A DNA stretch of 63,102 nt, the filler included, from Reticulomyxa filosa (taxonomy: Eukaryota; Protista; Foraminifera): assembly GCA_000512085.1 (NCBI GenBank). It is 21 parts of 21 records of this genome, joined end to end, with 100 filler letters (N's around TTAATTAATTAA, not from the genome) between each part and the next. Parts side by side here need not be neighbours in the genome. Positions count along the whole stretch, not along the records: positions 11,313 to 12,958 come from ASPP01022606.1; positions 13,059 to 14,880 come from ASPP01017782.1; positions 14,981 to 21,570 come from ASPP01025162.1; positions 21,671 to 26,217 come from ASPP01010023.1; positions 26,318 to 28,113 come from ASPP01000013.1; positions 28,214 to 29,945 come from ASPP01010977.1; positions 30,046 to 36,433 come from ASPP01004120.1; positions 36,534 to 38,314 come from ASPP01019113.1; 13 more parts are not named here. One strand, given 5' to 3'. The position numbers and the translations under genes were made by a program. The notes under the pieces are model-generated. The model saw only the letters and a list, made by a program, of their open reading frames with translations. It was not told the DNA's origin and did not search any database. Below are positions 11,344 to 63,102 of the stretch, one piece after another; within the stretch, counting starts at the first letter, position 1, and each line of letters opens with the position of its first letter.

Positions 11344-12894
11344 TACAATCTGAAACCAAACGATTATCGCAAATGCCAACGACGAATTGCGTTGGACAAA
11401 ATAATCTCCGTGTCACTGAGTGAGTCTTCGAATGAGTTTGCCATCCATGTGCCCGAGGAGTATGACTATAGATATCGCTGTGTACGTTCAAATTTTTTTT
11501 TTTTTGGTGGGAACGAGAAAAAAAAACCTGCAATGCATATTATTTTTTTTTTAAAAAAAACACAAACAAACATTAAACACATTAGGAAGACAGAGAGAGA
11601 ATCCTGAACGTATTGTCAGAAGTTTATCAACAAAAACAAGGCAAGAAATTGGGCATCAGCAAAGTCTCTCAAAATGAATTGTTGGAGGTGGTGGTAACGA
11701 AAGACGTTGCAAGACTCCAGGTTAAAAAAAAAATACCAATCCTGAAATCAAGGGGAAGGGAAGAAAAATATGTCACTGCTTCAAAATGTTGTACTACCAA
11801 AAAAAAAAAAAAAAGGGAGAAAAAAAATTATGGAAAATACGTATACTTTTTTTTTTTGTTGTTGTGTGGCCCGGCAAAAAAAGACACGTGAAGAGCGCTT
11901 GAAACGATTTAAAGAATTGTTGGGCAAAGAAAACTTTGAAGAAGAAGTCAACGATGCGAAAGGCGCCAATGTGGCCACGAACATGATGAACAACAAAGAT
12001 AAAGTTGAGTTTTTTAAAAAATTGTTTCACCGTACGTGTGTGTAATACATACTTATAACGTATGTGTAATTGCATTTTATTTTTTTTTAAATAAAATTTT
12101 TCCCCCTTCTCCCCCCCCCTTTGCTGTTCAACGTTCAATTGTGATGTTTGTCCATTTATATGTGTGTCACAATAACATTTGAAAGGTCCAACCAGATGAT
12201 TTCGAATTTTTGAAAGTGATTGGAAGAGGTTCATTCGGAAAAGTAATGCTCGGTATGAAGATGGTTGTGTGTAAAATGAACTGCGCTTTTGTATTTGTAA
12301 TAAAAAAAAAAATGAGAGTAGTGTCATGTGGTACGTCCATGTGGACACACATAGTAATATTGTACACCACACATATCGGGTCATACATACATTATGAAAA
12401 ATGTTATTGGTTTATTTAAAAGTATGACGTACATACCATTTGCATAAAAAAAAAACAAAAAAAAACACGCACACATAGTGAAAAAGAAAGACACCGATGA
12501 TGTATTTGCGATGAAAATTTTGAAGAAGAAAGCGCTGATAGCCAAACAACAAGTCGAGCATACGACAGCAGAACGTAACATTTTGCGATCGATGGACCAT
12601 CCATTTTTGATGCATTTGCGATATGCATTTCAAACGGATGCCAAGCTGTACTTTGTGTTGGATTACTACAAAGGTGGAGAGTTGTTCTTCCATTTGAAAA
12701 CAGTCAAACGCTTTTCCTTGGAGCAAGCCCGTTTCTTTGTTGCTGAGGTTGGCATGGCTTTGGGGCATCTGCATTCTTTTGACATCATTTACAGAGACTT
12801 GAAACCGGAAAACATTTTGTTGGATCAAAGTGGTAACGCTTGTTTGACTGATTTTGGCCTGTCCAAAGAATTGACCGACGGAGAAAAAGCAACA
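11344..12894 (+). CDS. AGC-family Ser/Thr kinase with N-terminal myosin TH1-like (PH-fold) domain; partial, at least 5 exons
   Basis: YNLKPNDYRKCQRRIALDKIISVSLSESSNEFAIHVPEEYDYRY (TH1-like); DDFEFLKVIGRGSFGKV, FAMKIL, HPFL, YRDLKPEN, DFGLSK. Introns 11482-11585, 11721-11883, 12004-12185 and 12253-12478 keep frame. Confidence 0.92.
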
Positions 12895-13082
12895 GTTTGA
12901 TTACACTGCAATATTACTACTAAGAAAATACAAGGGAGAGGGGAAAAAAAAAAAAAAANNNNNNNNNNNNNNNNNNNNNNNNNNNNNNNNNNNNNNNNNN
13001 NNTTAATTAATTAANNNNNNNNNNNNNNNNNNNNNNNNNNNNNNNNNNNNNNNNNNNNAACAAAAAAAAAAAACTTTTGTAG

Positions 13083-14848
13083 GCAGTGACAGTGAAGAGC
13101 ATATAGGCGATCAGTTAACTCCAATATTATTGGCACAAGTGACAGCAGCGGACAGTGTAGAAGAAAACTTTTGTCTGCAGCTTGAAAACACCTCGGTTCG
13201 AGAGGAGGACAGTAAGAGTAACAGCAGTGTCGAAAAGGAAGAAGAAGGAAAAGGAGAAGATCGAATTGAATTTTGTGGAAGAGAAGAAGAAGAGAAGAAC
13301 AGCGATCAACAAGGGTTCACTGACAAGTTTGACAAAAACAAGCACGAGCAGGTCATTTGTCGAGGAAGCATACGTGGCAATTCGGATTTCCACTCATTCT
13401 ATCTCGACCCCTTTCAATCCAACGCACAGAAGCGCTTTCGCAAAACTGTGAGAAACCCACCGTCCAATCGCGTTGTTGTGCCAGCGTCCATACTGCCAAT
13501 TCTTTACAGTCCCAAAGAGGAACAAGTATGTTTGTATGTGAGTCCTTAAAAAAAAAAAAAAAAAAAAAAACAAAACTTACAGATAAAAGCAAACATTAAA
13601 AAAAAAAATATTATATATGTACATATATATGTATATATACATACATATATGTATCGACAAAATAAATAAATGCAAACAAACTAAACCTTCTCACTATACT
13701 CAAAAAAAAAAAAAAGGGGGATTTGGAAGTTGCAGCGTCGTTACAAGAGCGCACCCAAAGTTGCAGCAACTTATTACCGCGATCTAACACTTGTCGCAAA
13801 GTGATCGTCGCGCCGGACTTTTCGACCCAACGAAGTCAGTCGTTCAGCCGCTTGCCCCAGAACTTGCGTAGGGAGAGTCGTGAGAGCAGCAAGAAGCACA
13901 GCAGTTGCGAGTCGAACTACTTGCAAGTTGAAGAGAGCATCGACTGCGAAACAACAGTAGTAGCAGCAGCAGCAGCAGCAGTATTACATAACAGAAGAGC
14001 ACAAAGTCAAAGTCAAAGCAAAAGTCAAAACCAAAGCCAAAGCCAACCACAAGTAGCAGCGTCAACAGCAGAGTCCAAAACCAAAACTAAGTCCAAGTCG
14101 AATTTAAAGAAAAAGTACCGATTACTGTCGCTCTCCAAAACATCTAACAAAGACAAAGTCATTTCAAAAGTCGATTCGATAACTCAATCCGTCTCTCTCT
14201 TGGTTTCGCATACTTTTTCGAAAAGCAAGAAAGTAGAGGACACTCCATATCCCGAGTTTAAATTTTTTTTTTTTTTTTGGGTCCCCTCCCCCCTCTTCCT
14301 CCTTCAATTTCATAGTTTTTTTTTTGTTTTTTTTTCTTTAAAAAAAAAAAGTGATTGTTCATGACCGTTTTGCATAGATCCGTTCAACATCATCGACGAA
14401 AAGTAGCCCCATCAAAAAAAACAGCGAAAGCTTCAGCTCGACTCTTCCAGTGCTACGCTTTCAGTCGAACTCGAGCGAAACCTATTCGTGCTCGGTTGAC
14501 AAGTTAGACGAGGAAAGCGACGAATCAGTGTCGGGCTCGTGCTCAGGTTCGGGCGTATCGATCAAGAAAGAGATCAAACAGTCGTGGTCCCACGTGGACA
14601 AGCGCCGTCGTAAGAAAAGCTTTTGGAACAAAATGGGCTGTTGCTGCGGCTCAGTTCAAAACAGCCCCAAAGGCGTCGAAACCTTCCAAGAGACTCAACA
14701 ACAAGCCCATAAAAAGGAGGCCAAAGTCGTGGTCATCCGCGATCATAAGGATGTGGATTTCGATACCAATGGCCCAAACAATGGAGTGAGTGGCGTGAAA
14801 CAAGTCCACGATCCAAATCAAAATATGACGTTGAATGACAGAAATGGC

Positions 14849-14880
<32 letters not shown>
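13083..14880 (+). CDS. Hypothetical low-complexity Ser/Lys/Gln-rich protein, at least 3 exons, partial
   Basis: ORFs 13130, 13723 and 14450 join via intron 13526-13716 and an intron ending at 14377; contains an MGCCCG cysteine cluster and poly-Asn. Confidence 0.6.
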
Positions 14881-14980
14881 NNNNNNNNNNNNNNNNNNNN
14901 NNNNNNNNNNNNNNNNNNNNNNNNTTAATTAATTAANNNNNNNNNNNNNNNNNNNNNNNNNNNNNNNNNNNNNNNNNNNN

Positions 14981-15028
14981 TCAAAACCAACATCAAAACC
15001 AACATCAAAACCAACATCAAAACCCACA
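14981..15028 (+). repeat. 12-bp tandem repeat TCAAAACCAACA encoding SKPT
   Basis: Three perfect units and one variant, in frame with ORF 15041. Confidence 0.85.
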
Positions 15029-18265: not shown

Positions 18266-19996
18266 TTATTTAGAAGACGGAGCCAACCAATCTCGTGGAC
18301 GAGAATACACTTGTTCTGCAATTGTTTCAAACGGATGAGCGGGACTTCGGCAATACTCCCAGCGAGCGGTGAGGGGCAAAGACAGGAAAATGGACTCCAT
18401 ATTGGGTCGTGGTTTGGAGGTATCTAGCACATTGCCCCTATCATGCATCAATTGAAACTCAACATATCTTCCCCGCCGAAGTTGTTGCCACTCCTTTTCT
18501 TCCGCCGAATATTGCTGAAGCGCGTGTCTTCGTACCAATGGGATATACGCTGCGACGTGCGCACTTGCGCAATTTTTGACAAATTGGACAAGCCTTTCTT
18601 TTTCATCTACGTTATCGTCGTTGCATGTCAAATCGTCAAAATAGATCCCGCCTTTTTTTAAAAATGTATACGTATACCATCAAAAAGTATAAAGCCATTT
18701 CTTTTTTTCTTATGTACATACATAAAAAAAAAAAAAGAGTGTTTTCTGTTTTGTTTTTTTTTAACCAATTCCCCGTGTTTCATTTCGATGTGGAATGAAA
18801 AAATGCTTATCACACCAATCTTTGAAGCGCGGATAATAAGAGGGATGAGTCAACTCGCAGGCCTGTTTAAGTGTGCGATGAAAGTATGCACAATCGTCTT
18901 CGTAAATAATAGCTGGCGATAACTCAGATTCGCCATTAAACCACCATACTTTACAGACAAACTCGCCTGTTGATTTGTCAATGTCACCGAATTCAAAATA
19001 GTTGCAGCAAAAATGCCCACTTGGTGCATGCGGATTCCATGGGTGCAACTCGCTCTTTACTGTTGATACAAAGTATTCGACATTGCCTTTTTCGTCACCT
19101 AGCCTTTTTTCAGACTATGTTATATACGTAATATAGCATATATACATATATGTATACATATATATATATATTTTTTTTTGCAAAACTAATAATTTTTTCA
19201 ATTTTGCGTGCCCCGACGCCATTCTGTCTAGCGAAGAAGCTGGAACAGAGCCACTCTGCACACTTATATTTACTCCCGCTTTTTCGAAGATCTTGCCGTT
19301 GGAAAGTACTTTGATCAATCCTCCCGAGTACGGAGTGACTCGTCCGCTCTTGTCCCTTAACCAAAAATCAGGAATGAAACGTGGAGGCATATCTCCTTCT
19401 GTATAAATTCAGAGTGTTCAATATACTTTACAGATAAGAAGTGACTCTTTTTTTTTTTTTCCAAAAAAAAAACAAAACAAAAGAGAGATAGAGGGAAAAA
19501 AAAAACAAGCCTGTTTGTTGAAATGCCTCTGCCTCTAATTCTTCCACTTCGTAACAAATGTGCTCTTGCGTTGCTCGGATTATCCTTTCCATTTGTGCTT
19601 TGGTGTTATGTTTAATGAGATATTTGCTTTTTGCTTTTTCTGGCTCTTCTTCTTCTTCGTCCTCGTTGTCTTTTGTGAACAGCAACAGTCTTATATTGTG
19701 GAAGTCATCCCAATTTGAGTGCAACGATGTTTCTAAAGGCAATGGATTGACATGGGTTGTCAAACCTTTCTTTTCCGACTCTATAGTCCCTTTTCTTGAC
19801 GGAAGAATGATAAGTACTTTCGACTCAAACGAGAAAGATAGGACTCCGGTTCGTTTGTTGTGTCTTCTGGCTCGTTTTTTCCGGCGCCTGACGACGATGA
19901 TGCTGTGGAAGTTTTCACCAGCGATCCACTAAGCAGAAAACTAACTGAAAAGGCCATATATCGCTTTGACAAGAAATGATAACGATTCCAACGCAT
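18266..19996 (-). CDS. CPOX: Oxygen-dependent coproporphyrinogen III oxidase-like protein (divergent active site), 4 exons
   Basis: [70 protein letters not shown], PRDW. Introns 19399-19510 (GC-AG), 19115-19186 and 18652-about 18764. One frameshift near 19792. Basic N-terminus suggests mitochondrial targeting. Confidence 0.9.
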
Positions 19997-21117: not shown

Positions 21118-21670
21118 CATTATAGCATCCCTCCTTTGTTCCCCCCCCCCCCCCCTTTTGTTCCCCCTTTTTTTTTTTTTTTAGAACTTTTGAACTTGTG
21201 TTTTATGGCTTATAACCCTCCCCCTTTTTTTTCCCTCAATTTTTTTTTTAGAATTTTAGAGAATTAAGTTTTCTTTTAATTAATGTTTATCTTTCTTTCT
21301 TTTTTGTATGGCTCACTGCACTCTTTTTTTTCTGCTCCTGTAACTTCTCCAGTAAAAAGCTAAATCTTGTTTGTATGGACGAACAAAAAAAAAAGATTAT
21401 GATGTCTCACTATTAAAAAAAAATGCGGAGCGTACATTAAAATAAAGGCAGTGTTATTGGATGAACCAAGAGTAAGCGATCAAATTTCGAAAGAAGAAGA
21501 GTCGATGTTGTATCTTGTTTCAGGTAACACAGATAACCAATAATTTCATTCACTTATCCAAAAAAAAAAANNNNNNNNNNNNNNNNNNNNNNNNNNNNNN
21601 NNNNNNNNNNNNNNTTAATTAATTAANNNNNNNNNNNNNNNNNNNNNNNNNNNNNNNNNNNNNNNNNNNN

Positions 21671-21704
<34 letters not shown>

Positions 21705-23266: not shown

Positions 23267-23423
23267 CTAAACTTCAGGCAACGACCACGGACGAAAAGGT
23301 AAATCGGATGCATTTTGATTCAACACAGGAACCCGTATTTGAATGCGTTTACTGCGATCCACAGGGATCTGAACAGCCCGTGATTTATTGAACTTGTTGG
23401 AGTCATTGTTATTATTATCATTG

Positions 23424-23491
<68 letters not shown>

Positions 23492-25031
23492 GTCATTATT
23501 ATTATTGTTATTACTATAATTCGTGTTAGTGTAATTCTGATTGTAATGTTCATAATTGTGATCATTATAGTTATGATAAGACTCGTCGGGGAATTCTTGT
23601 GTAACCGGAGACTGTTTGATGGACGGCAGCAAAGGCCGTTGCAATTCGCCTTGTTTGTGTTCTTCACTTTCCTTATGTTTTTTCCCGTTCCATTCATCTT
23701 TTTTGTAGCTTTTTTTTATTTCGCTATGAGTGAAAGGATCCGTGCCCATTGCAGATTCGTGATGCTATATTATTGGTTATTATGCTGTATATTACTTTCT
23801 TGGTTCACACATACAATTGATTTCACAGATCAATTCAACACAAATGCATATATCTATATATATATATATAGATATATAAGTAAAGAACTTGATCATCAAG
23901 ATTGGAGTCTAACGTGGAATGAAGTGACAATTGCGACGAGTCGCAGCTGAGATGGCGCGACTTGGCTTCTCCAAACTCGAAAGGATGATTGGACGCGAGT
24001 GAGTTCATCATATCGACGCCAACGCCGCAAAAGCTTTTCTGAATGGGATCATCGAGGCTGTTATTGTCATAGCCAACACTGGGATTGGGATCTCCGTGAC
24101 CAGACAGCATAACAAAGGGTTTGTGAAAGGGTTCCATGTGTTCAATATTCGCGCTCGCAGTGCCAGTAGTCGCATCAATAGCACTAGCAGTATTAGTAAT
24201 AGCAGTAGTAGTAATAGTGGAATCAAGAGTATTATCCTCATCATTTTTATTAACAATTTTCAAATCCAAATAAAATCTTGGAATTTTGTCACTTTTCATA
24301 TTTTTCAACCCCCTGAGTGCAAAATAATATTTCGCATAATCGCTACCACTGATGTACAGGTCATAATCGATGCCGTGCAAATATGCTCCTTCCAATGTGT
24401 TGATGCTCACCAACGACAGCAAAGGCAACAAATTGGCAAACTCAATGTTCCAAGAACTCAAATCGTCCCATACTTTCGATGCCGTCAAAATGCTGGCTAT
24501 CATTATCGGACGCCAATTTCGTGGCGTCAAACACATTTGTCGGCGATCCATCAGTCTCTCCGCGTATATCAATGACACGATCGTCGACTCCACGTTCAAA
24601 TGCAACTTCTGGAATATATGATGCATAAACGCTCGCACATGCTCTTCCGACGGCTCCGACACAAAACTTCGGTGGTGCTTTTGTTTGAACACACATTGAC
24701 TTGCACCACTTAACACTGCTTGAAATGGTAGCACGGCTATATACTTCTTCTTCAGATAACGGTCTATATCAAACTTATTCTCCCAGTCCATATCTCGTCG
24801 ACTTCCTATTGCATTGTCACGCTTTATCAAATGTCGGTAAAATATCTTTGATACTAGGTCCAAACACAACGATAACGACGGCTGGAACAACGTTCCTTCG
24901 TCGGGTAACCTTAATTTTGTTTGAGAGCCTCGAATATTTTTTAATGCCGAGTTTTCTTCTTGCTTTTTCGGCTTGTTTGATGCTCGCTTCTTATTCTTAT
25001 TCTTTTTGTTCATATTTTTCTTTTGGCTCAT
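23267..25031 (-). CDS. CCNY: Cyclin Y-like protein with poly-Asn tail, 2 exons
   Basis: LNVESTIVSLIYAERL...NWRPIMIASILTASKVWDDLSSWNIEF...YAKYYFALR (cyclin Y box); intron 23765-23888. Confidence 0.88.
23403..23515. repeat. (AAT)n coding microsatellite (poly-Asn)
   Basis: Long TTA run within cyclin Y exon 2. Similar tracts at 14848-14880, 21671-21704, 52499-52545 and 54186-54322. Confidence 0.9.
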
Positions 25032-27228: not shown

Positions 27229-28016
27229 ATGAGTAATAGAAGGTACTCGAATTTAGGTTTTCGGGTACGTCTTTTGTGATTGAAATATGTATATTCAATT
27301 TTGAGAACGCAACAACACAAAAAAAAAAATAGATTGGAGATGTACTATTGTTACCAGAAGCTGTAGGCGTTGTATATTTCATTGGAAATGTTCACTGGGG
27401 TTTGTTTGCAAGGAAGAGGGGAAAAAAAAGAGGAGTAGGAAAACTCTCGGATAGAGGGGGACATGATTTTTTTTTTTTCAATGGTAACACAAACAATATT
27501 TTGTGTGATATTTAAAACGCTTTGACAGATGAGAAACATGTATACGTTGGATTGGAGCTTTGCGGTTTAAGTTTTTGTTTTTGAGGTTCTTTTCGCAAAT
27601 TTTTTTTAAGTGAAAAGGGGATCGGGCTTGGGGGAAAAAAAAAAGACGCAATTGAAAACGGTCATGACGGATCAATTGATAATGTGAGATATTATGTCTG
27701 TGAGCCTGGTAAGGGGATGATGGTACCAATTGAATCAGTCGTTCGAGCAGTATTTTCAAGAGTTCTTAAACATTCTTTTTTTCTTTTTTTTTTTAAAAAA
27801 AAAAAAAAAACAACAAAAAAAAGTTGTTTGGAGAAAGAGGAAAAAAAAAGATAAAACAATTGACAAAAATCCGATAAAAAAAAAAAGGAGCTGTTAGACA
27901 AAGTATCCGAATTAAATATCGATCTGCAACGGCAAAAAACGTCGATGTTACAAGTAAGCACCCAATTGTCTATTGCCACATCGACTATTTCCCGTCTTGA
28001 GGGCGAGCTTGAAACT
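27229..28016 (+). CDS. CAP-Gly domain plus coiled-coil protein, 5 small exons (absent from ORF track), 3' truncated
   Basis: Exons 27229-27264, 27333-27399, 27529-27564, 27646-27761 and 27888-28016 splice in frame to MSNRRYSNLGFRIGDVLLLPEAVGVVYFIGNVHWDEKHVYVGLELCDAIENGHDGSIDNVRYYVCEPGKGMMVPIESVVRAVFSRELLDKVSELNIDLQRQ... Confidence 0.88.
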
Positions 28017-35505: not shown

Positions 35506-36433
35506 ATGACTTCACATAACGACAACAATGAATTAAATTCAGCACAAAGTCTACGCATAAAGAAATATGGCAACTCTCGCCAACAAAAACAAGGCACTTC
35601 AAATGAAGGTGGTGGGAGCGAGAATAAAGTGGAAGACGAGACAGTGGTTTCAAATATATTGAGTAACCGTGGTGTACGAGGCAAGACAGGTAACAGGAAA
35701 GGCGATCATAAACATCACGTACAACATCCGACAAGGACGTCAGTTGACCACTTGACTACCTCCTTGGGGATGAGTACAAATGATTCGGAGTTAATTGTGG
35801 ACGACGACATTGAAGTCGAACCTGACAACAGTATTGCAAATCCTAATAACCATGTAAACGGGGTGTTGACACGAGTTGGAATGAGTTTCGTTGTGTTTTT
35901 ATTTTTTGAGCCCTTTTTTTTTAAAAGAAAAAAAAAATTGTTGTTTGTTTTTTTTTTTTTTTGTAATTGTGAAAACTGAACAGACCAAGACAGTGACGGA
36001 GACACATACTCTTCAGGAGGTTCGACCGGGGAAGATGGTCATATTCGACAAAATACCAGAAAACAACCTTTTACTAGTGCAAGCCAGGGCAATGGAAGCT
36101 CTCCAGTGAGTATGCAAGCATCAGAATCATTTCGAGGTACTTTTTTAATATTTATATACACCATGCACATATACATATGGTTATTCTTTTGTCTGAACGT
36201 TGTACCAATTACACCCCCAAACGACCTTTTCGTTTTTTTTTTTTTTTTAAACAAAAAAATTATTACACATTATTCAACAAATATGTATATAGAAGGCTCA
36301 CAATTGGGAAATGATTTTTCACCAGTTGGTGGAAATTCCAAATATCCAAGTGGATTGAAACGCGTTGGCAGTGGGATGAACAACAATAATAATAACAATA
36401 ACAAGAATAAGAATAGGAATAATAATAATAATA
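35506..36433 (+). CDS. Hypothetical hydrophilic protein, multi-exon, partial
   Basis: ATG 35506 ORF plus coding-like exons near 35984-36137 and 36292-36433, separated by T/A-rich introns. Confidence 0.5.
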
Positions 36434-36699: not shown

Positions 36700-38100
36700 G
36701 TTACTGAATCTCTCCGGAGATTTGGAGACTTTGTGATACCATCCGGTCTGATCAAAATCTACTGGTTATGATGTTTCTTGTTGATCAAATTCTGCTTGCA
36801 ATAAATTTCAGGAACACCATTTTCTCCAAGTTTTCCCATCGGAAAGTTGTAAATCTCTGAATCGCATTTGTTATGAATCGCATCCACAGCAAATTTGCAG
36901 TCAGAGAGGATTACAACTCTTTCGTCTTTGCAATTTTGATTTAATTGAACGTATTTCAATACTTGACGGATTGCCTCAATTTCACATCCAATCATTGTGG
37001 TAATTCATTGGATAGTAATTCAGTCCATTTTGATAGCAACGAATATTGGATGGCCAATCCTGCTCCTCCAAGTCCTGCAGCTTCCATCCATAAATATTAC
37101 AGTCGTCACATCGTGGAACTTAAGTGGATGTGGTAATTTTGCGATCTGCGTTAATAACTTATTCTATACCAACTTCAGAGGCATATGCTATGTATAAAGT
37201 TGATAATTTTACTCTCCAAATTATCTTTACATCAATTTCAATATCGTGGTTGTTTCTCCACAGTTGATATGCCATTGCTAAATTATGATCCATACTCCAT
37301 CGAATACACTTGTGATATAGTTTACTTCCTCCTGCTGCCTTCAAATTCAAATGGTATATCACATTCACAGTGTCGTGAATTTGTAACACCAAGAAAGCCT
37401 GTCCATTCCAGAGCGCACAGGCATATTCCAAAATGGTCTGATTATTGTCGTGTACAATAAATTTATATGAACACAAGAATGTTAAATATCCAAGTTTCTT
37501 TGATGCTTTGCCATAAACGTAGTTAATGTGCTGCTGGAATGTCATTTGTTGATCAACAATCAAACTTAAATATTTCACATGACCTGCTTCTTCAATTCCA
37601 TTCTCATTTACCTGGAGCTAATAATATTTTCTATTTTGATGCATACAATGAAATTTTATCCAAACTTGTTTGCATCAATGGCAGTCCCTTTTTCGTCACT
37701 AGTGTAAATGGATGTCCACAATGCTACATCATCTGCAAACATTCCGCTCATTTTACTTTTAATCAAATGAAATATCCATGCCAAGATTGGTAATATTCTT
37801 TCGTTTCTTCAGTCTCCGCTTTGTCTTTATCTGTCTTTGCGATTGTGCCAGATGTTGGTTTAAGAATAACTGAAATCTTTTTTGGATTCATTGATTTGAA
37901 TTGGGAAAATAACTGTCTTCTTGTTTTTCTTGCCATTATCTGTTATCCAATTACTGCACAATTTGTATTGATGTGATGTCGATTGATGACTTGGATCCAT
38001 CTTTTGAGTATATCAAACTGACTTGAATTTAGTGTCTGGAGATTATTGTTGATGAAATCCAACACAGATTCGCCAATATCTTTTTTTTTTTTTTTAAAGC
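36700..38100 (-). mobile_element. Non-LTR retrotransposon relic (RT and RNase H), same family as 10046-11212
   Basis: MFADDVALWTS (about 37710-37742, nearly identical in DNA to 10586-10617), VKYLSLIVDQQMTFQQHI, ILEYACALW, FMDGS, CEIEAI...VILSDCK (RNase H); heavily deleted. Confidence 0.88.
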
Positions 38101-38499: not shown

Positions 38500-39332
38500 T
38501 CGTTTTATGATATTCACTGTGAGTGATCATATGAGTATTACCCGACCTCCATTGAATTCTACTCGCCATGACTACTATTGGGCAGAACGCCCCCACGGAA
38601 TGAAGTATGGCCGTGAATGCTGTACGCAATGGCCGTTTAATACTCATCCAACCTTTTTATTCCACATCCCGACTGCGTTTAACGAAACCGTGAGATCGTT
38701 TTATACGTTGGAAAAAGAGTGGAACGTGCAATTGCTTCAATGGAAAGCTGAACATGAATTAACCAATGTTTACATCAATGATCAAGTGATATCCTGTTTT
38801 TTTGTTTTTTTTGTTTTTTTTTTTGGAAAAAATTAAAAGTTTGTTGACACATGCAGCATATTACAAGTGCATTTCAACTTTGTTGAGGGAAAAAAAAAAC
38901 AATGCTAATACATAATAGGAACATATCTTACCACCACGACCACGGCTGTTTTTATTTAATTCACCGAGAACAATTGATGAAAACACTTTGAACTCCAACA
39001 ATGTATTGAGTGATGGGATGAGATATGCCAAGAAAATATTTCTGAACAGCGCAGAAGATAAAATGTTGATTAAAAAAAAGAATGACCAATACTTCCAATG
39101 CTACAATTGCGAGCAACCTGATGTACAAAAAACATATAGTGTTGCGGAATGGGACACTGACAACGGATTAGTTTATCAAATTAACAAGCATAATGCGAAA
39201 AAGTTTTGGGACATTATGCCGTTATTTTCTAATGGTTTGATTAACTTTCGCTCTTTAAATGAAACAAATCAAGGCCAAAGTAGCTATGTGCAATTGAAAA
39301 GGTTAGTTGAGGACATTATCAAGAACTCTTGA
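38500..39332 (+). CDS. C-terminal part of a hypothetical protein (possibly fringe/galactosyltransferase-like)
   Basis: GRECCTQWP...FLFHI resembles the CCS..ISFH end of GT31 enzymes; two exons; weak similarity. Confidence 0.4.
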
Positions 39333-39492: not shown

Positions 39493-41318
39493 CTATTTTG
39501 AGTCCAGTTCCGATAACCTTTTGTTCACTCTTTCTTCAATAGTTTTGACTAGCTTTTCTTTTTCTTCTCCGTTTAAGAAAGTTGCTCTGGCTGAATTTAC
39601 AAACGATTGTAAAATAGTTTTTTCGTCAAGTCGAATCAATTGAGAACATGTCTCTACCTCGTGGGAGTAATCTGTGGCCATAACACATGGATCATCAGTA
39701 TTAATCCCAAAGCTAACCCCTTTTTGTGCAAATATAGCGATGGGATGCCGCGACCAGTCCTTGTCTTTGAGTACGATATGTCTGACGGCACGGGTGATAA
39801 TACTTGAAGTAGGACAACACTCTACATGAGTGTTATGCTTTATCAAGCTGCATTCACACACATGTTTGTTTATTTATTTACATTATTTCTTGGCAATTGC
39901 AGAAATGAGAAAAAATTGGCCTCAACTCTTTCATAACATCTTCATCTTCCGTTGCTCTATATCCATGTCCAATGCGCTCAGCGTGCAAATTGTGGAGCGC
40001 ATCTTTGACACTTTCGGGTCCACAAGCCTCACCAGCATGAATCGTAATGTGCAATCCCTTGTCACGACGTCACATCAAATCAGAAATTAATTGTTTGCAA
40101 CAAAGCAATTGTCAAAGATCAAATTTTGAAAAAAAATTATATATAAATAAATATACATATATATATGTATATTTAGCCAAAGGTAAAGTGTGAAGTTCTA
40201 AACTTTAACATTTTTGACTTGATCAAAAAATTCTTTGTACTCTTTGCTTGTTGCGGCCTGCTCACTTCCAGCAAGATCAACACCAACGACACCTTTACTT
40301 TGATACTTGATTGCCAAGTCAACAACTTCTTGCGCCTTTTCCCCTCCTTTCCAATTGCGCATGCAGCACAAAATTGATTTTACAGTAATTCCATATGATT
40401 GACTTGCTTCGTGCAATGCATCAAGTATTGTCACCAACACTTCCTCCGGTGTCAATACTTTTGAGCACAGCAAATGGGGTGAATACCGGGTCTTCCCATT
40501 TTTTTTTATGTTTTTATTTATTTATTTATTTTTTTTTTTTTTTTTGCATTTCAAAAAGAAAAATATTTTTTTGTTTGTTTACAGTATGCCCCCCCCCCCC
40601 CCCCCCCCCCTTTTCCTATCTCTCCCCAAATGTATACAGTTTTCAAATATTACAAAACATTCACATACACAAAGAAACCTCAGTGTAGTAAATCTGCTGT
40701 TCATACTGTTGCTTTACAAAGCCCTTACACATATCAATGATGGCACGTTTGTCATCGATAAGATAGGCCATGTAGAACTCCATTTTATCTAGCACTTCTT
40801 CCAAATGCGCACTTTGCTCTAAACATGTCACCAATGGGATAAAGTCCTCCAAAGTTTTCACGTGTTTCGGAATTGCACTAGGGTGATTCCTTTTTGCTGC
40901 TTCATATAAAATCTTTGGGTTCACGCTGCCGTCTAGATGCACATGCTATTGTTATCGACAATTTTTTTTTTTTTTTTCCATTCACAAAAACAAACGTTGC
41001 ACATTAGTGTCATCACCATACACATCCCATGTTTTCCATACCAGCTCCACACGATAAAAATTGGATGAATCCCTTGGACTTTCTATTTGTATTACATTTT
41101 TACTTTCTTTTTTTTTTTTTTCTTTTCTTTCTTTTCTTTCATATTTTCACTCACGTCGTACCTGTTTTTGCTTCGTCAAGCTCTTCGGCTGTTTCGACTG
41201 CTACTGCGTTGCTCTTTTGGCCAGCTTCGGAAAACGTTGATGCACTCGCGCTTTGAAGGCCAGGTCTTATCTCCTCTGCTCGAGATTCATCCTCAGCTTT
41301 ATTGAAAAAATTTCCCAT
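39493..41318 (-). CDS. ADA: Adenosine deaminase, about 6 exons, with N-terminal MGNFF extension
   Basis: [56 protein letters not shown]; all metal and catalytic motifs present. Confidence 0.94.
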
Positions 41319-42740: not shown

Positions 42741-43397
42741 TTTCCTAGAGAGAGAGAGAGAAGGAAAGAAAACACTCCTATCCAACGACAACAAACAAAC
42801 AAANNNNNNNNNNNNNNNNNNNNNNNNNNNNNNNNNNNNNNNNNNNNTTAATTAATTAANNNNNNNNNNNNNNNNNNNNNNNNNNNNNNNNNNNNNNNNN
42901 NNNCAGTTATTAATAGCATATTTTTTTCAAACTGCTTATTCATTGCCAGATAATAACATTGTCCTTGTAGACCTGTTTTTTTTTTAAAAAAAGATACCTT
43001 ACGTCCTTTTTCTAATATATCACTCCATTTTTATATTTTAAAAAAAAAGTTGGCAATGGACCTTTGTCTTCACGTCTTCGCTTGGTTCGATTGAACAAAC
43101 CCGGAATAAATGTGATACGTTTGGGTTGATTATTTTTGATCTTCATTTGACGCAAAGATGTAGACAATGGCAGCAATCGCAGTTTTATTCGAATAATGTT
43201 CAATTGCTAGAAAAATTGTTCTTATTTTGAAATTTATTTTATTTTTTAATTAAATTTTTAAAATTAGGCTTTGATTGGAATTGAATTGGATTTACATGAA
43301 CGTACACACACCACAAAACAAAACAATACAATCTTATTACAATTAACCACCCAAACTTTCGCGTTTTTTTTTAAAAAAAATCAAAACATGATAATAG

Positions 43398-43461
43398 CGT
43401 CGAAAAGCGAAAGCACTAAAAAAAAAAGCAAATCTAGGTTTTAAAAGTAAGAGATTATATA
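43398..43461 (+). repeat. 64-bp displaced copy of POP4 exon 2 sequence (44915-44978)
   Basis: 61 of 64 positions identical, same orientation. Confidence 0.9.
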
Positions 43462-44448
43462 AAAAACTGTCAATCATAGCTCAATTTTTTTTTTCTTTCT
43501 TTATTTTTTTATTATTAAAAAATTTTTCTTCTCTTTATACGACGATCGACAACGTTAAACGACACTATCGAAACTGGAACACTACAGTTACTCGAAAATT
43601 TATTGTTTTAAAAAAAGAAAAGTACAAACTTACATTATTGCACAAACGTTTTTTTACTTACCTTTTAAAAATTTTATACTGTAATGGGCAAATTTCTTTG
43701 CCTTATAAAAAAATTTTATTAATGGCATATGATCATATGGGGCATTCCTTGCCCCAATTGACCCTTTTTTTGCTTATTATCATCACCTATAAGCTGCAAC
43801 CCTTGCAAAGCTCAGAGGGATGGTAGTGTTATCTTCTATTACTGTTAACCGGATCAAAGCACATCGTAATAACAGGAGCAATGAAATAAAACAAACAAAA
43901 TAATCACAAGCAAACAAACACATTCAAAGAAAGTTGGTTGGAAACTAGCTGAATACTTTAAAAATAGTTTTAAAACTTTGAAATTTGTATGTTATCACCA
44001 ACAAATAAGTCTCTTGTTGAGCCAACACAAGCTGCAATCATTTTTCTTTATATTTACGTTGCACTTTCTCAATACCACAAATTTAAGTCAATATAAATAA
44101 AAATTTATATCTATTTAAAAAGTAAAAAATTTCTTAATTTACTACAATCTGTACACATAAAGATGAAATACTCATTGTTGGAAGTTGAATTAATCAAGGC
44201 TATTATTCATCGGAGATATTGATGTAAATAGTCTTTATAATTCATTTCATTATTAATATGCCAGACTTCAACTATAATATACAATATTATTTGAAATATC
44301 TGTTAAAAATTTGATAAGTTGTTGAAGTAACATTAACGTGATGCTGTCTACAAGCTTTGTTAATTGTGAACAAGAAAAGGATATTTTCCAAGGTTTTACG
44401 TTTTTTCGAAATTCCTTTTTTTTTTTGTGAAAACGAATATTATTTCAA

Positions 44449-45513
44449 ATGTCCAAACAAAACAAACAAATACTGAAATCAAAGCAACCACAAAAGAAGG
44501 AAAATCCAAAAGAATGGAAACCAGCAATCAGTGGCAAAGATGAAGAGCGCTATATGAATTTTTCACAAACGCTGAGACTGCCCAAATGTGTGACTAATTT
44601 CTTGAAAGAATTCCCTCAAACAGGGAAAAACCTTTCAAAAAATGCACAATTTGTGGACAATTTTTTCAATTCTGGAATGCAAAAGGATGTGCTTTGGATT
44701 CGCAAAAAAGACATAACACATCCAGCAACATCTCACTTGCAGCTCAAACAACAAGAAAATCTAAAAGGCTCTTTTCCCAAATCAGTGTTGGAAGACAATC
44801 TCAATTTAGGGTTCAGTTAAAAAAGGTCAATATTCATTCTGCCAAAACTTATTTAAAGTTATATTTTTAAAAAATAAAAGTGTGAAAATTTCGACTCAAC
44901 GCAGAAAAGTGGCACGTCGAAAAGCGAAGGCACTAAAAAAAAAAGCAAAGCTGGGTTTTAAAAGTAAGAGATTATATAGAATAAAAACCCATTTGCATTT
45001 GAAACAACACGATGCCCGATACAAGTTACCAAAGTATTGTCTCCCTTTTGTATCTCGTTTTAATCATTTGCAAGCTGAGAGTTCTTTAAATTGGGCTGAC
45101 TTTTTATCTTTGCATCATAAATGGAAACAATATGCATCCCGACATTTGGAACTTGCTCAGTCAAAGCCGTATTTCTCTAGCGAGGTCAGCGGATATTATA
45201 TCAATCATTGCATTTGCCAGTTGGATTTACATGGATGCTTTGTCAAAATTATTGAAGCTAAGGCAAAAAGATCGCTCCAGAATTTCCAAGGCATCATTTT
45301 ACAAGTTTTGCTTTACCAGTTCTTTTGATAAATTTATAGTTGATTATTTTTTTTTTTTTTAAGGTGTCAAAAAATCGGATTGTCTTCATTAGCCAGTCTC
45401 CAATACCTAATCGGTTGATCCATTTGCCGTTAGTGGGAACCGAATTTTCATTTACGATCAAAGAACGTTTATTTTGCATTCATGGCACACATTACAGAAA
45501 GTTCATAATTTGA
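44449..45513 (+). CDS. POP4: RNase P/MRP subunit p29 (Pop4), 3 exons
   Basis: FLSLHHKWKQY...LDLHGCFVKIIEAK...FQGIILQ|VSKNRIVFI...EFSFTI...IHG; introns 44811-44880 and 45305-45363. Confidence 0.85.
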
Positions 45514-46058: not shown

Positions 46059-46544
46059 TCACTTTTGGAGAGTACTCATGTATTTCTTGACAAAGCGATG
46101 AAACTCCTCTGTTTCGGCAAATCGAGTAAAGCTGTCACGAGCCATTAATTCGTACACCTGGATAGACAATAATGAATAAAAGGAGAAAACATATTGTTTG
46201 TTGTATGTGATATGAAAAAGAAAAAAAAAGAAAGACCTCTTCGGCAGCTTTGTCGAAAGCACGTAATAAAATGCCTCTTGGCTGAGAGGCAAAAGAAGAA
46301 ACGTGAGATTGATGGAGAAGATCATTGAGGTGCGGTTGTTTGTGTGGAGGCTGAGAAGGAATAGAAGGGCTTTGAGAGAGTTCGACAGGTTCATCAGGCG
46401 ACGCTGGCGTCGGGGACGGACTTGGCGATACAGAATGCACTTGTGCAATGTTATCCAGTGCTTGAGGTACGTTTTCTTTGACTTTGGCAAGGATATTGAT
46501 ATTAAGTCCATGAAGAGATGTTGCTTTGTCACGTGGCAGCTCTC

Positions 46545-54292: not shown

Positions 54293-54323
<31 letters not shown>

Positions 54324-56110: not shown

Positions 56111-56279
56111 GTGTTTTTTTTTTTTTTTTTCTAAACCAAAGTGACAANNNNNNNNNNNNNNNNNNNNNNNNNNNNNNNNNNNNNNNNNNNNTTAATTAAT
56201 TAANNNNNNNNNNNNNNNNNNNNNNNNNNNNNNNNNNNNNNNNNNNNATTTTTATATACATAATTTGCAAAAAAAAAAA

Positions 56280-57836
56280 AAGTTGTACCAGAAGAGGATT
56301 GAAGGCTCAGCTCTTCATCCAAAATGGTGTTTGACCCACCCACGTAGTCATATCCACCTGAATCGGTCACACATTGTTGCACCCATAACGACAATGACTG
56401 ATTATCGACGAGTGCGTTCATTTGTTGATAGCTGCAATTTGCGGTAAATGTCTCCACCGTGTTGTTTGTTTGCCAACAATTGGAATTCCACAAATTTACG
56501 TAATCCCACCAATACGACTCATTATGTGTTTGGGAATATCTTTCAATTTTTTATTTTTTTTTATTTTTTTTTAAAAAAAAACAACGACAACAATGATTCT
56601 CTTAACTTCCACACACAAGTACTTCTCAAGTTTTCTTGTACTACGTCCATGCCATTCAATCCTGACGAAACATCGCCTTTCATTGTGACAGTTGCAAGTG
56701 ATTTGTAAATTATTATTATTATTATTAATTATCAAATTGATATATGTGTGTGTGTATGTGTATGTACATGTAATTAAAATTAAAATATTTTTAAAAAAAA
56801 CACCTTCAGGATCGACCGCGCAATATCTCCCAGAATTTGTGCATTGTTTGCCACAACGAAAAGTTCCAGTGTCACATCTCCAATAGGAGCCATTGATGGT
56901 ATATACGTGGGGTGCAAATGTAGTGTAATTTTTATATTCCAAGTTCAAGGCGGTGTTTCGCCAATTTTGTTTAAACTTGACGGTTTGGGGATCATTGGCA
57001 CTTGTCCACAGCTCATATTCCACACGACCATCGGGATGAGGGAGTCCCCATTCCAGACGGGCAATGACCCAGTTCATTTCGCTTGGATCCGGATATCTGG
57101 TTTTGGTAATGTTTATTGGATCCCAGTTCGACACATTTAACGCAGACATCAAAGTACTCGCATTTGTAAATGCTATCCATTTGTCGTTGTGTTGTACGTA
57201 CACAATTATCAATGCTACGTATTTTTGATCCTTTGACACACTGATTTGTAGTAGGATATACAAATACATATATGCATATATGTATATGTATGTATATGTA
57301 TACATACATATATCTATACATTAGTAATGTATATTATTGTATTAACATAGCAAGACTGAAGGAATGTCAATATCATCAACCCAGTTCTGTAGGGGCCACA
57401 TTGTAAACAGTGGCTCAATTGCGTCATCTAGGACAATTGCAGCAGATGCGCTAAGGGCTTGCACATTTTCCACTTTTTCCACAAAGTTGCAACTGCCACG
57501 GTCTATTAAAAATATAAATGATAGGGTTGATGAATCTCCTGTCCAGTCCTCTAACCAGTGGATGTATTGATTCTGATCAATCACTTCTTTGTTGCACTCC
57601 GTATGATATGTAGTGTTCATTGGAAGCACCAGATATCCTTCCACATTTCCTCCGTATTCAATGTGTCCAAATTGTGCTGGAGCTACCAACCACTCCAGGC
57701 CGTACAAAGGACTATCCGAAGACACGTACGGAAATTTTAACAGTGCTCCAGTACTCGACTCATCTGCTGTTGCTGTTTGACCCAAACGACATTGCCAGAA
57801 TAATATAATGCTAACACTTAATATTACTTGAAACAT
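56280..57836 (-). CDS. Vacuolar sorting receptor (BP-80/VSR-like), PA domain; multi-exon, 3' truncated
   Basis: Signal peptide; AQFGHIEYGG, LIDRGSCNFVEKV..Q, EPLFTM, IDIPSVL; LEWGLPHPDGRVEYELWTS; CGKQCTNSGRYCAVDPE; GMDVVQENLR; NTILDEEL. Confidence 0.9.
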
Positions 57837-58046
57837 TGGAATGCAGGCTCTTTCAATTTGACAAGATTTTTTTGATGGCGGATGGGTAGACGTTCACTAG
57901 GAAAACTGACAAGGAAGTGACTTTTTTCCAATAATGAAGCAGAACAAGTGTTCGAAGGAAAAAAACAACAACGAAATATTCAAAATTTACAAGAATTTGT
58001 TATTTGTGTTTTATACATTGCTAACAAAATCGCAAAAGAAGGAAAA

Positions 58047-61000
58047 TCATCCCTTAATTGATAATTCATCCCCAAAAAAGGACGAATTTCCTTCATTGAT
58101 CTGTTTTTGTGTTGTCGTACTCAATTTGGATCGAACAATCTCTTTGTATTCAAAATCGATCTGTTCCAAATCAATATCAGCATTGATCAACGCATTAGTA
58201 GTCTCACTTTGTGGTTTTTGTAGAACCTTTACATGTGCCCAAAAGCGGTCCAACAATGCCGGAATGAATAAGAAAATGATCAAAGGTATCCAAATGAATA
58301 GCAGAAACACATAAAACGATAGCACTTCCAACATGACTTGCCATCGATGATATTTGCTCCCTTCTGTAAAGGGTCGAAAGCAGATGGGGCAAATAGTGCG
58401 ACGATATAGCAATTTTTTCATGAGATCTTTATCAGCATCATCAACAATTTGATACTCTTGAAATAGTTCAAAGTAATCATTAATGTTACCTTTTTTGTCT
58501 CCAATGTAATGTCTGTTATCGTTCCACAAAAAAAATTTGTATACGTATAAACAGAGGTAGAACAAAAAAAAATTCTTGCAAAAGTATTACCTGCAATAAC
58601 GACAATGATCAGGTTTTTCAAATGGATTTTCAACACATTTTCTACCTTTTAAGGAGAGAAACAGCCCCGAATTGGCTTCTTGAATATCGGAGTTTTGTGA
58701 AGATATAGGCGTGCGGACAGATGCCTCATTTTCATCTTTTTTTTTTTTTATCATGAGTATGCCACAGGTGTAAAAAAAAAACTTTTTTTTTTTTTATTAA
58801 GAAAAAAAGTTGAGTAATCGAAATTACCGGATTCAGTGTTGTTTGCGTTTTGCCAGACATCAGCAGCCTCGTCAGCACCCGCGAATTGATCAGTGGATAG
58901 AATGGGTTCATCGGATTTGACAGCGGTGAGCGTTTTCATTTCCACTTCAACAGAGCCAGTATTATCCACATTGGTATTAAGCCGGGAAGGAATACGTTTG
59001 TTTTTGCGACTGCGTCTCCAACTGCTGTTTTTGGTCACAATCAAATCACGATTCAAAGAGTAACGAATGGGAAACCAAAAATTAGCATTCAACACATATT
59101 TTCCGCGTGTGAGTACTCGAATGGAGTTATCCAAGATGGAAACCACGGCCATGACCACGATGACCACAATGTTGAAAGGAGGGGACATTAGGCCATGTCT
59201 CCTGGCGGTATCGATGGTATCTTGGAAGCGGCTAAAGTTGGATTCCACTCGCGCGCGTTCTTTCATAGCGTAATATGTGCTGGCCATCAATGCCAACAAC
59301 AAGTTCAACAAAATGATGGTACCCACGACACTGTACAATGCAACCACGCATTGAGCCAAGCGCGAACGATACCAACTGAAGCAAATGACCCCAGTGTCTA
59401 GATTGTATCGTTCGTTAATCGTCGTCCAATCTTGTTCCCCCAACAGCGTTTGAAATATATACAACACCGACTGCGCCAGTGAATACAGTTCGTAGCGAAA
59501 CTGCGCGTCGTAAGTGCAAATGTCAGGATGGGAAATCCGCAAGTCGGAGGAGACAATATAATACAATGCCAACACAAACCCAGCAGTGAATAAGATCAGC
59601 AATATCAAAAAACTCTAAAGAGGTCCGATAGAACAATTCACAAGCCATACATGACGTATACATTAAAAATTTGTTCGTTTATTTTATTTTTTTTTTTTTG
59701 AAATAAAATGTATTGTATAAAAAAAAAAAAAAAAAAAGTAACAAAAATGTCAGTCATCATTTTCATGGCCATTTTGAAAAAAACACCAGTAGAAGTATTT
59801 CTTCGAAAAAAGCCCAAGAGACGCGTCCAAACGAGAATGCATTGCAACGACCAAAACAACATGTAAGTGGTGGTGTAATTGGAATTGATCTTCTTTTCCA
59901 ATTTGAGGACGGAGTAGTGATGGGACAGCTCTCCATTGGTGGTGTTGGCGGTGAACTGGAACCGCGAAGGGATAAGAAAGCGCATAATAAACAAAGCGAT
60001 CCACACGCACATGATCGCTAAATCGCAATAGTTGAACAAATTGGCAAAGTAGTGTCTGCCTTCAATGACCAATTGGACCAATTGAAATAAAATGAAGCCG
60101 ACATTGGCCAGCCATAAGATCTCCTCTTGTAAAGTGAGTTTTTCAAAGGGATAAATCCGCAGATAAGTGATCCAAGAGATGAAAAGTACATAAAAGAAGT
60201 ATAAAAAGAACTGCGTGAAATAACGGCCAATCGCACTGAAATAGAAGCGATTGGGTGATGTGATGAGCGTATGTAGCGTTTGGAAGTTGCTGCGTTCGAT
60301 CTGCAAGAAATTTTCTTTTGGGTCCAAATACTCGTATTTATTCCACATTTGTAGCATCAGCGGGGAGAGACGATGGAAGTCAAGGAACGAGTCCAGATGG
60401 AATCGAATGGCGATATCGAGCATGGACATTTTGTCAATGTCGCAAGGGATTTCGACAAGAATGGCCAGCAAATGATCATTTTCGATCTCAGAGAGCAGGC
60501 CAGTGGAAATAGCAATGTACTTTTCGCTGATGGCAGTGAACTGTTCTTTCCGACTTAAATCATGGTCGGCACGCTCTTTCATAAACGCAGCAAGATATAA
60601 AGATGTCGCTTCCGGAAATTCGCTTGTTTCAATAATAGCCTGACACAACTCATCCAACGACTTAATCTGCAGCTTGCTCAGCAACTCGCGATTCTCCTCC
60701 AACAGTCGCACAGCAATGGCCGTCGGCAATTGATTGGCCAAATAAATTAAACAGTCCCATACACTTTCGCGATCTTTGACAGATAACTGGTGGACACAGA
60801 AATACCACAAAGGCTTTCCATATGTGTATACGTCCAAGTCATATAACAGCTTTGGCAATATTGGTTTGTTCGTTTGCATTTTTTTGGAAAACGTGTTTTC
60901 CATAATTCGGGTAGTCCCCCCTCCTTTCATTGTCCTCCTCGTCACATTGCGACTCCATTGCATTAGCTCCTTCTTCTCTTGCTTTTCTTTCTTCAATTGA

Positions 61001-61326
61001 TTGTACCTTCGGAACTGCTCGCGACGACAGATCCGCAACGCCGTCACTTTCCTTTCGCGTCGGAATTTCAATGCGCGATGCTTGTCCGCCTTATTCTTGT
61101 CGAACATCGACACCATCTCGCGCACTATGTTCGCCTCTTTTATCTCTGGCAGCGTTGGCAACGGTAATGGCTTTGCTTGCGACAGCGATATCACCGCCGA
61201 CTTCATCTTCAGAAACTGCGCCATCTGCTCCGCCAGTGTCTCTGGGGGACGATAGTCGCTTATCTCTTTCCCCACTTCCATATAAAATACAAATAGTCGA
61301 ATCGCTTCTTTCAATTTTCGCAATTT
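58047..61326 (-). CDS. TRP-like 6-TM cation channel, multi-exon, 5' truncated
   Basis: S1-S6 hydrophobic pattern, WTRLLGFF...GVFFKM..MMTDI, pore FQTLLGE, IILLNLLLALMASTY, SPPFNI. Confidence 0.85.
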
Positions 61327-63102
61327 CTTTTTTTTTTTTTTTATTACCAAAAAAATTAAAAGTGAATTTACGTACATATACAAACATATACACATGCATA
61401 TACGTATACGTATACGTATACATATATGTATATGCATAATCANNNNNNNNNNNNNNNNNNNNNNNNNNNNNNNNNNNNNNNNNNNNTTAATTAATTAANN
61501 NNNNNNNNNNNNNNNNNNNNNNNNNNNNNNNNNNNNNNNNNNTGTCTTGAATTCGGGTAATGGCAGGATTACGTACCATGATGAACTCTCCACAGAACAC
61601 ATTTACTTGAACGCATCCCCTTTTCTTTGTCGCTCCTTCGTCAAAGCTATGATGAAGTTATCTTTCCTGGACTGAATATATTATATTTATTGGTTTGTGC
61701 ACTTACACAAACAATATACTTTTTGAGTTTTGATTGAGATAGACCAAGAAAATACCAAACTGGATAAGATAAATTGCACTGCATATGTCCATATACTTGA
61801 TTCTTATTGCTTTTGTAATTTTTGGTGTTGATAATATACACGCTTTCACTTGCTCGATATTTTTTATTGTTTTAAACCTATTTTCACAGGACGCACCAAC
61901 TGGATATTATTAAAGAAAGAAAAAGTATTCAATCAAGTAAATACTTATTGCAAACTCAATCTGACGATTTACCTTTTTTTCTCATTTTGATTGTGATATT
62001 TGTATATGCGGAACTTGGTCTTGTATGGTTTCGATATTGGTCTTGGAGTCAACTTCAATTCTTAAGTTCGAAATATCGACGACATGGTACACTTGCTCGA
62101 CTTGAAGACAATGTACTAACTCATCGGACAAATGCGTATATCGACATCCAATTCGAAGATTATTCCAGATGTATGTCCAAATACTGGCAACAAAGTCGCT
62201 GACGTAATAGAATTGAAATTGCATTAACAATGACCTGGAATCGCAAGTTGTTGTTTACATTAACAACTTTGTTACATGCGCATATCTAGATAAATTCTTT
62301 GGGCCGTGTGATTGGAAGGTGCAGTTGTCATTACTGGTGGCCGTTAATTTTTTTTTTAGTACGTGTCGGTCCCATGAAAATCTTGTATGTTGATAATATC
62401 TTTCGATAGGCTGTAGAAAGCGAATTATTTCTATTTTGAAATCCTGTATATTGATTGCATATATGTCTATAGAAGATACAATCAAACGACTGTTGTTTGT
62501 GTGTTTATGTACCTAACATATCCAAGTCGACGTTTGTGATAAAGTTGGAGACACCAAAACAGCGGCTGTATTGAACACATATTGATCCCTTGCATTGCCC
62601 ACTTCTTGTACTACACTTCAATATCTTCGCCAATTGAATCGTCAAAATAATAAATGAATATCGAATTGAAATAATCAATTGTTATGATCATGTCATTCGC
62701 CAATGAAGAATTTGGTTCATTCAATATTATCAATTCAATTTTGCTCCACATTCTAGTTGATTTGTTGTTGAATCTCATCACTGCAATTGCCATTGGTCTT
62801 GAATCTGAAGTCATTGGTCCCATCTTCGTCTTTTTTTTCTATAATGTCATAAGTTTGTTTTCACATTGATATTTAAAAAAAACACAAAGAAAAAAATATA
62901 CTTAACTTGTTATCCCGCTCAGGATAATCAATTTTTATAATATTAAATTAAAAAATTAAAATTAAAATAATTTTCTTCATTTTCTTATTCTTTTTTTTTC
63001 TTTATCTTTTTTATTATTAACTTTTTTTTTTTTTCCAACAATTTTCTTTTTCTTTTTCCTTTTTTTCTTTTTCAATAACCTTTTTTTTTCTTTTTTATTA
63101 TT

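Follow-up and report, generated by a model that had tools for sequence, protein, structure and literature searches.

How does a spliceosome find the 3' end of an intron that has no polypyrimidine tract to mark it? The question is raised by a 63,102-nucleotide stretch of DNA (the window) from the foraminiferan Reticulomyxa filosa (assembly GCA_000512085.1), in which 21 contigs are strung together by N-flanked spacers that carry stop codons in every frame, so that adjoining contigs are possibly not genomic neighbours. The original prediction for this window was that intron acceptors use A-runs and AAG instead of a polypyrimidine tract and YAG, and that the lineage may recognize 3' splice sites differently, through an altered or lost U2AF65 or through RNA structure. 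Judged from the introns reconstructed here, the splice grammar appears to be real and unusual, and it is best filed with major-type splicing as a variant, with the notion of poly(A) in place of a polypyrimidine tract only partly supported. The introns are probably of the ordinary major GT-AG type but very poor in signals, and their 3' end is probably the first AG other than GAG after a degenerate branch point and AAG is about as accepted as TAG.

RESULTS

All statistics refer to 31 reconstructed introns, with junctions predicted from homology and reading frame. Exons were found with Pfam, and at 12 junctions (four in a kinase, three in a sorting receptor, four in a deaminase, and one in an oxidase) all frame-open GT/GC-AG pairs were enumerated and then scored against homologues, namely 5 kinase relatives, 10 of 21 receptor matches, 15 of 150 deaminase matches, and 3 bacterial HemF proteins. 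These 12 introns and 7 others, whose reading frame was backed by a structure alignment, a Pfam boundary, or a family motif, make up tier A (19 introns); the 12 introns of tier B have the reading frame as their sole basis. The introns are 67 to 226 bases long, and GT-AG pairs restored homology at 12 of the 12 scored junctions. The 31 introns have 30 GT donors, one GC donor, and AG at every acceptor, within an enumeration confined to GT/GC-AG pairs.

Three signals stand out most clearly as specific to splicing: an AG-free zone before the acceptor, the avoidance of GAG, and a residual preference for YAG. In 31 of 31 introns, no AG lay closer than 20 bases upstream of the acceptor, which leaves the preceding 19 bases free of AG, and the last 20 bases held 2 AGs compared to 14.0 ± 3.7 in rotations of the introns (0 compared to 7.7 in tier A). 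As a control, 17 equally A-skewed stretches before start codons contained 18 AGs (Fisher p = 5e-7 against introns). Since these stretches are similarly A-skewed but contain AGs, the depletion of AG is specific to splicing whereas the A skew is not. None of the 31 acceptors is GAG, a triplet that makes up 17 of the 64 internal AGs left unused (p = 0.001). The AG-free zone and the absence of GAG fit an acceptor that is the first suitable AG after the branch region, as in U2-type introns. YAG made up 18 of the 31 used acceptors and 13 of the 64 unused AGs (p = 0.0004), also exceeding the local background (p = 0.01).

The high share of AAG in the original tally (10 of 23 introns) held up in the larger set. 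The acceptors were AAG in 13 introns, TAG in 12, and CAG in 6 (9, 7, and 3 in tier A), and AAG won at 7 of the 12 homologue-scored junctions, each time 20 to 40 units above the next acceptor. With 18 YAG against 13 AAG, the strong YAG preference of animal- and plant-type acceptors is absent. AAG acceptors make up from a few to 15% of the total in most eukaryotes, and the approximately 40% found here is far above this. AAG was not commoner among used (13/31) than among unused internal AGs (34/64), and it is thus tolerated rather than favoured. In read-through pieces of paralogue models, P0001 has AAG where the window has TAG, and P0129 has YAG where the window has AAG. Presuming that intron positions are conserved, this suggests that the -3 base alternates between AAG and YAG among paralogues (P0001, P0125, and P0129) at the same intron position, and such switching would fit relaxed selection.

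The pyrimidine tract is indeed missing. Pyrimidines occupy 104 of 310 bases at positions -13 to -4, compared to 145 expected from within-intron rotations (p = 0.0002; in tier A, 73 compared to 88, p = 0.06); only 2 of the 31 introns are at least 70% pyrimidine over positions -20 to -4, and 10 of the 31 ends are purine-rich. The enrichment of A at the 3' end was borne out only over the full set, in which A makes up 54% of positions -13 to -4 compared to 40% overall (p = 0.001). In tier A, the excess was modest and not significant (46% compared to 39%, p = 0.13; last twenty bases, p = 0.06), and part of it may stem from by-eye picking in tier B. That acceptors are often directly preceded by A-runs was an overstatement, as at least four As stand directly before (N)AG in 8 of 31 acceptors, while such a run also precedes 10 of the 64 internal AGs that are not used and is found at 12% of intron positions. 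The ten acceptor sequences cited for this claim were all found where they had been reported. The statement that the sites were fixed by conserved protein does not extend to 13716, 27887, 44880, and 58736, which were placed by frame only; at 61327, the A-run acceptor is present, but there is no visible donor and the contig begins inside the intron.

Intron 5' ends are T-rich (292 compared to 221 of 620 bases, p = 5e-5) and 3' ends A-rich. Junctions of T5+A5 outnumber those of A5+T5 by 7 to 0 in introns and by 13 to 3 in the rest of the window, which suggests that T-then-A polarity is a property of non-coding DNA. One contig (28214-29945), masked in these run-order counts, is bacterial, with a GC content of 52% and pieces of an ABC transporter and RsmE; its best relatives are Rheinheimera/Alishewanella (76 to 79% identity), and it is likely a contamination of the eukaryote assembly.

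The donors are weak as well. GTRAG was found in 0 of 31, T was the commonest base at +3 (GTT in 17 of 31), and G was present at +5 in 9, with 6 of the 9 GTA donors and 2 of the 17 GTT donors carrying it. AG at the usual +4/+5 occurred once in the 31 donors, whereas AG at +5/+6 (GTYNAG) occurred in 6 of 31 (3213, 12004, 40203, 39926, 56606, and 44811; p = 1e-4 against intron background, with six positions tested). Possibly there are two donor classes, one of them in a shifted register. U12-type GTATCC/ATATCC donors were found in 0 of 31 introns, and the available part of Table S7 of PMC11347168 gives no minor snRNA for R. filosa. There was no Rfam match within the window.

Genes and individual introns

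Among the homologue-scored genes, the TH1-kinase gene (+ strand) has four introns. For intron 1 (11482..11585, GT..TAG), the chosen pair was the top of 50 open pairs, nearly tied with an AAG pair at 11486-11589. Intron 2 (11721..11883) ends in A7G, giving an AAG acceptor, and scored 145.8 compared to 114.8 for the next acceptor; intron 3 (12004..12185) ends in AAG (148.4 compared to 122.6), and intron 4 (12253..12478) has an AC-rich end with TAG (190.4 compared to 170.4). Of 29 loci with kinase relatives in a metagenome scan, the three that were read (L007, L021, and L022) had no foraminiferan-type intron. In one case, the kinase gene of a relative is interrupted where the window has kinase intron 1, and the intron there (L022:503-677) has a T-rich 3' end with TAG.

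The vacuolar sorting receptor gene (- strand) carries intron 1 at 57173..57346 (GT..TAG, 141.3 compared to 118.4), where CAG, AAG, and TAG at least 42 bases upstream are bypassed, and introns 2 (56677..56803, 200.3 compared to 180.3) and 3 (56540..56606, 154.6 compared to 117.2), both GT..AAG. A GC donor with a CAG acceptor, read by eye in this gene, was overturned by homologue scoring.

The adenosine deaminase gene (- strand) has a 5' intron at 41083..41161 (GT..TAG, frame only), intron 1 at 40946..41041 (GT..TAG, 65.9 compared to 33.9, best upstream frame), intron 2 at 40492..40678 (GT..A9-TGGGAAG, 83.0 compared to 45.1, with Pfam position 92 on both sides), intron 3 at 40058..40203 (GT..AAG, 102.6 compared to 62.0), and intron 4 at 39848..39926 (GT..CAG, 104.3 compared to 87.9). 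Long C/G homopolymer runs lie at 40585-40611, inside deaminase intron 2, and at 21127-21142, amid AT-rich non-coding DNA.

The kinase and receptor exons have proteins of R. filosa as their best matches, and NCBI-type models exist for two of these loci. P0127 (RFI_05274), a model of the receptor locus at 56248-57320, is 100% identical over the query, making this foraminiferan the very likely source of the DNA, and P0148 is a model of the deaminase locus at 39493-41318, whose exons match at 100%. The two models resume at the same AAG acceptors (56677, 56540, 40492, and 40058) as those chosen here, and compared to the homologue-based junctions, they read through or misplace several introns.

In the coproporphyrinogen oxidase gene (- strand), intron 3 (18652..18765, GT..A7G) scored 140 compared to 101 with bacterial HemF, with Pfam position 179 on both sides. 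The same scoring failed to fix the other two introns, being uninformative for intron 2 (19115..19186, GT..TAG, frame only) and giving low scores for intron 1 (19399..19510), where the top pairs all need a GC donor and the acceptor is CAG or an AAG/GAG 3 to 6 bases on. In this intron, the GC donor is apparently needed, and three in-frame acceptor AGs follow each other at 3-base spacing.

The gene at 2834-3614 (+ strand) encodes RBMX2/Snu17, a member of the RES splicing complex, and itself carries two weak-signal introns. Intron 1 (2846..2921) ends in AAG, with four As before the AG; it was placed by frame, the first aligned exon residue being position 6, as in human RBMX2, and other open pairs exist. 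For intron 2 (3213..3296, GT..TAG), one of three open pairs was chosen for continuity of the RRM. The CAP-Gly gene (+ strand) has four introns: 27265..27332 (GT..A11-TAG) and 27400..27528 (GT..CAG), both placed by frame and the CAP-Gly motif; 27565..27645 (GT..G5-A10-G), with an acceptor used by 3 of 4 open pairs and a Pfam CAP_GLY match beginning 4 residues into the exon; and 27762..27887 (GT..A11G), placed by frame only, with a GAG at 27890 likewise in frame.

Three introns of the TRP-like channel gene (- strand) were included: 58513..58590 (GT..CAG, frame only, other open pairs exist), 58736..58827 (GT..A13G, no homologue and a single open pair within the ranges tried), and 59615..59742 (GT..TAG, pyrimidine-rich end), the sole open pair in the ranges tried and followed by an exon at which an Ion_trans match begins. 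A presumed further TRP intron, counted outside the 31 and known from its sequence, is represented by its 3' part at 61327..61442 (- strand), which ends in A15G and whose donor is lost in a gap. The other pyrimidine-rich end belongs to the intron at 46158..46236 (- strand, GT..CAG, sole open pair in the ranges tried) of a gene that we take to be RGS-like and that has no Pfam match. The remaining introns, all placed by frame only, are in a cyclin gene (23765..23888, - strand, GT..TAG) and in unnamed genes on the + strand, at 13526..13716 (GT..A14G), 35885..35983 (GT..CAG), 36137..36292 (GT..TAG), 38786..38918 (GT..TAG), and 44811..44880 (GT..A6-TAAAAG).

Two slightly different copies of a sequence of about 70 bases are present (43395-43465 and 44917-44985), one of them apparently lying outside its gene. 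Decayed pieces of reverse transcriptase and RNase H from non-LTR-like elements are present at 10112-11210 and 36762-37617, and in one of these elements, an internal inverted duplicate at 10633-10875 resembles 10112-10453.

DISCUSSION

Our results are probably best explained by major-type splicing with little sequence information at either end of the intron. The branch point would lie roughly 20 or more bases upstream of the acceptor and be loose in sequence, a scan from it to the first AG other than GAG would set the 3' end, and U2AF65 would contribute little sequence information. The T-rich 5' ends and A-rich 3' ends would be mostly neutral, arising from the T-then-A polarity of the non-coding DNA of this genome, and with the preference for YAG relaxed, this A-rich background would often supply the -3 base and so make AAG common. 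The part of the original prediction that is supported is that the 3' end is recognized differently: a conventional U2AF65 would find no U-rich tract to bind and the preference at -3 is relaxed, so recognition of the 3' site would lean less on U2AF than in animals and plants, and we infer a reduced role for U2AF65. The part that lacks support is A-runs as the replacement signal, since most acceptors lack a run and the AT skew is similar at intron 3' ends (+0.29 ± 0.08) and before ATG (+0.23 ± 0.09).

Several observations weigh against this explanation. The start codons behind both comparisons with pre-ATG stretches were chosen by eye, and 12 of the 31 introns were placed by frame only. The 3' A excess is significant when all 31 introns are used (p = 0.001 to 0.006), and runs of A10 to A14 right at the AG look hard to attribute to background alone. 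The proposed polarity is not uniform, as stop codons are followed by only a weak T bias (-0.10 ± 0.11) and one of seven gene-to-gene spacers is strongly opposite; moreover, long A/T runs are about twofold denser in introns (20.9 per kb) than in intergenic DNA (11.7 per kb). Introns also fold better than their dinucleotide shuffles (mean z of -0.85), in contrast to intergenic pieces (+0.12; Mann-Whitney p = 3e-4). Finally, the branch point is deduced from the AG-free zone alone because no branch motif is enriched: in a search of positions -45 to -6 with 7 patterns and 2 A/C-rich patterns, YTRAY was found 6 times compared to 5.8 expected, TRAY 16 compared to 14.1, and CTRAY 2 compared to 1.2. 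YNAY was likewise not enriched, 31 introns being too few to expose a degenerate motif, and the sole excess was a weak one for ACR (p = 0.015, uncorrected).

The A excess raises the possibility that the A-tract takes the place of the pyrimidine tract and actively marks the 3' end, being recognized by an altered U2AF65 or by some other protein that binds A. Besides the A content of positions -13 to -4 over all introns and the predominance of purine-rich over pyrimidine-rich ends (10 compared to 2 of 31), this agrees with the base at -4, which is A in 25 of 31 introns (p = 0.0006 against local background), and there is a precedent in Fritillaria, where a divergent U2AF2 paralogue was shown to bind A-rich intron ends (PMC13326754). 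We nevertheless consider it unlikely, since runs of at least four As are found at only 8 of 31 acceptors compared to 10 of 64 unused AGs, tier A shows no significant excess (p = 0.06 to 0.13; A at -4 in 13 of 19, p = 0.10), the sequence before ATG is skewed in a similar way, and two introns have ordinary pyrimidine-rich ends. A broader version, in which foraminiferan splice-site recognition is rewired at both ends, with U2AF65 lost or A-reading, an A-rich acceptor with ANAG, one donor class shifted by one base (AG at +5/+6), and an intron-rich genome without a visible branch motif, seems to us just as doubtful.

Less probable still is that RNA structure defines the introns, with donor-side T-runs pairing with acceptor-side A-runs so that the splice sites are bridged and U2AF65 is bypassed. 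The T-rich 5' ends and the folding of introns but not intergenic pieces are in line with this, and end-to-end pairing is predicted in a few introns (27565-27645, 38786-38918, and 27400-27528). However, the mean z drops to -0.34 when homopolymer runs are kept whole, and the antisense strand of the introns folds well too (z of -0.58), which points to DNA palindromes. The folded end-to-end span (20.4) is not shorter than in shuffles (18.0 to 20.8), and between the first 25 bases and the last 25, there are on average 1.9 pairs compared to 1.6 in block shuffles, with no more than 6 of the 31 introns above the shuffle mean. What the predicted folds do contain is internal hairpins. The structure-guided joining of intron ends that had been suggested thus lacks support as a general rule, although a few introns could pair in this way. 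It is very unlikely that the share of AAG is merely inflated by misplaced junctions or sequencing errors, with true acceptors being mostly YAG. The junctions are predicted from sequence in a fragmented assembly, the NCBI models differ at several of them, and our own by-eye choice at 57173-57346 was overturned; but seven AAG acceptors outscore every alternative by 20 to 40 units, Pfam positions run gapless across 18652 and 40492, and homopolymer length errors within introns leave exon frames unshifted.

If major-type splicing with very weak signals is the correct description, an intron-rich eukaryote without a pyrimidine tract, a clear branch motif, or strong donors represents an extreme of minimal spliceosome consensus. 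Such a genome would allow one to ask whether scanning for AG is enough to define the 3' end, and how the specificity of U2AF changes in evolution. Weak splice signals likely explain the mis-spliced gene models of R. filosa, and gene prediction would call for a splice model built for foraminifera in which AAG is permitted. In the available part of Table S4 of PMC11347168 (263 species), only 6,244 of the annotated introns of R. filosa (n = 50,607) are classed as consensus "major," whereas 29,850 count as "major-like" and 11,851 as "non-canonical." By hand arithmetic on the lowest-looking rows from Capsaspora to Vulpes, the major share is smaller only in Entamoeba invadens, and the low value is in part a product of noisy annotation. 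For Reticulomyxa and for foraminifera in general, we found no description of acceptors that are A-rich or end in AAG in the literature searched, a search that left out one spliceosome figure and the R. filosa genome paper (Glockner 2014), which possibly describes splice signals. The accessible parts of PMC13746701, PMC12730881, and PMC10158995 contain nothing on acceptors, and the Astrammina paper (PMC3079666), in the portion available, terms foraminiferan introns canonical and leaves their signals undescribed.

Compared to known systems, these introns combine familiar features in an unfamiliar way. They share A-rich ends and weak tracts with Fritillaria borealis, in which such ends are read by the divergent paralogue U2AF2-beta (PMC13326754); unlike in Fritillaria, where intron ends are mostly non-GT/AG and the factor is demonstrated, the ends here are canonical and the system is known from introns alone. 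Zebrafish (AC)m-(GT)n introns are structure-bridged and U2AF2-independent (Lin et al. 2016, PMC4691745), and the window resembles them in its complementary low-complexity sequence at opposite ends and its many tractless introns. In zebrafish, however, AC at the 5' end pairs with GT at the 3' end, whereas in R. filosa the ends are T and A and their pairing does not exceed that of shuffles. As in Entamoeba, where GUUUGU donors go with a co-evolved U1 (bioRxiv 10.1101/2022.06.08.495308), T is the commonest base at donor +3, but donors in Entamoeba are strict and branch points clear, while here the donors are loose and GTTTGT occurs once. In fungi and protists, introns with weak pyrimidine tracts usually make up for them with strong branch points (Iwata and Gotoh 2011, PMC3033335). 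The introns of the window differ from these in showing no branch motif, weak donors, a pyrimidine-poor 3' end, and about 40% AAG, and they resemble them in being short GT-AG introns with a weak tract, an AG-free zone, and some preference for YAG.

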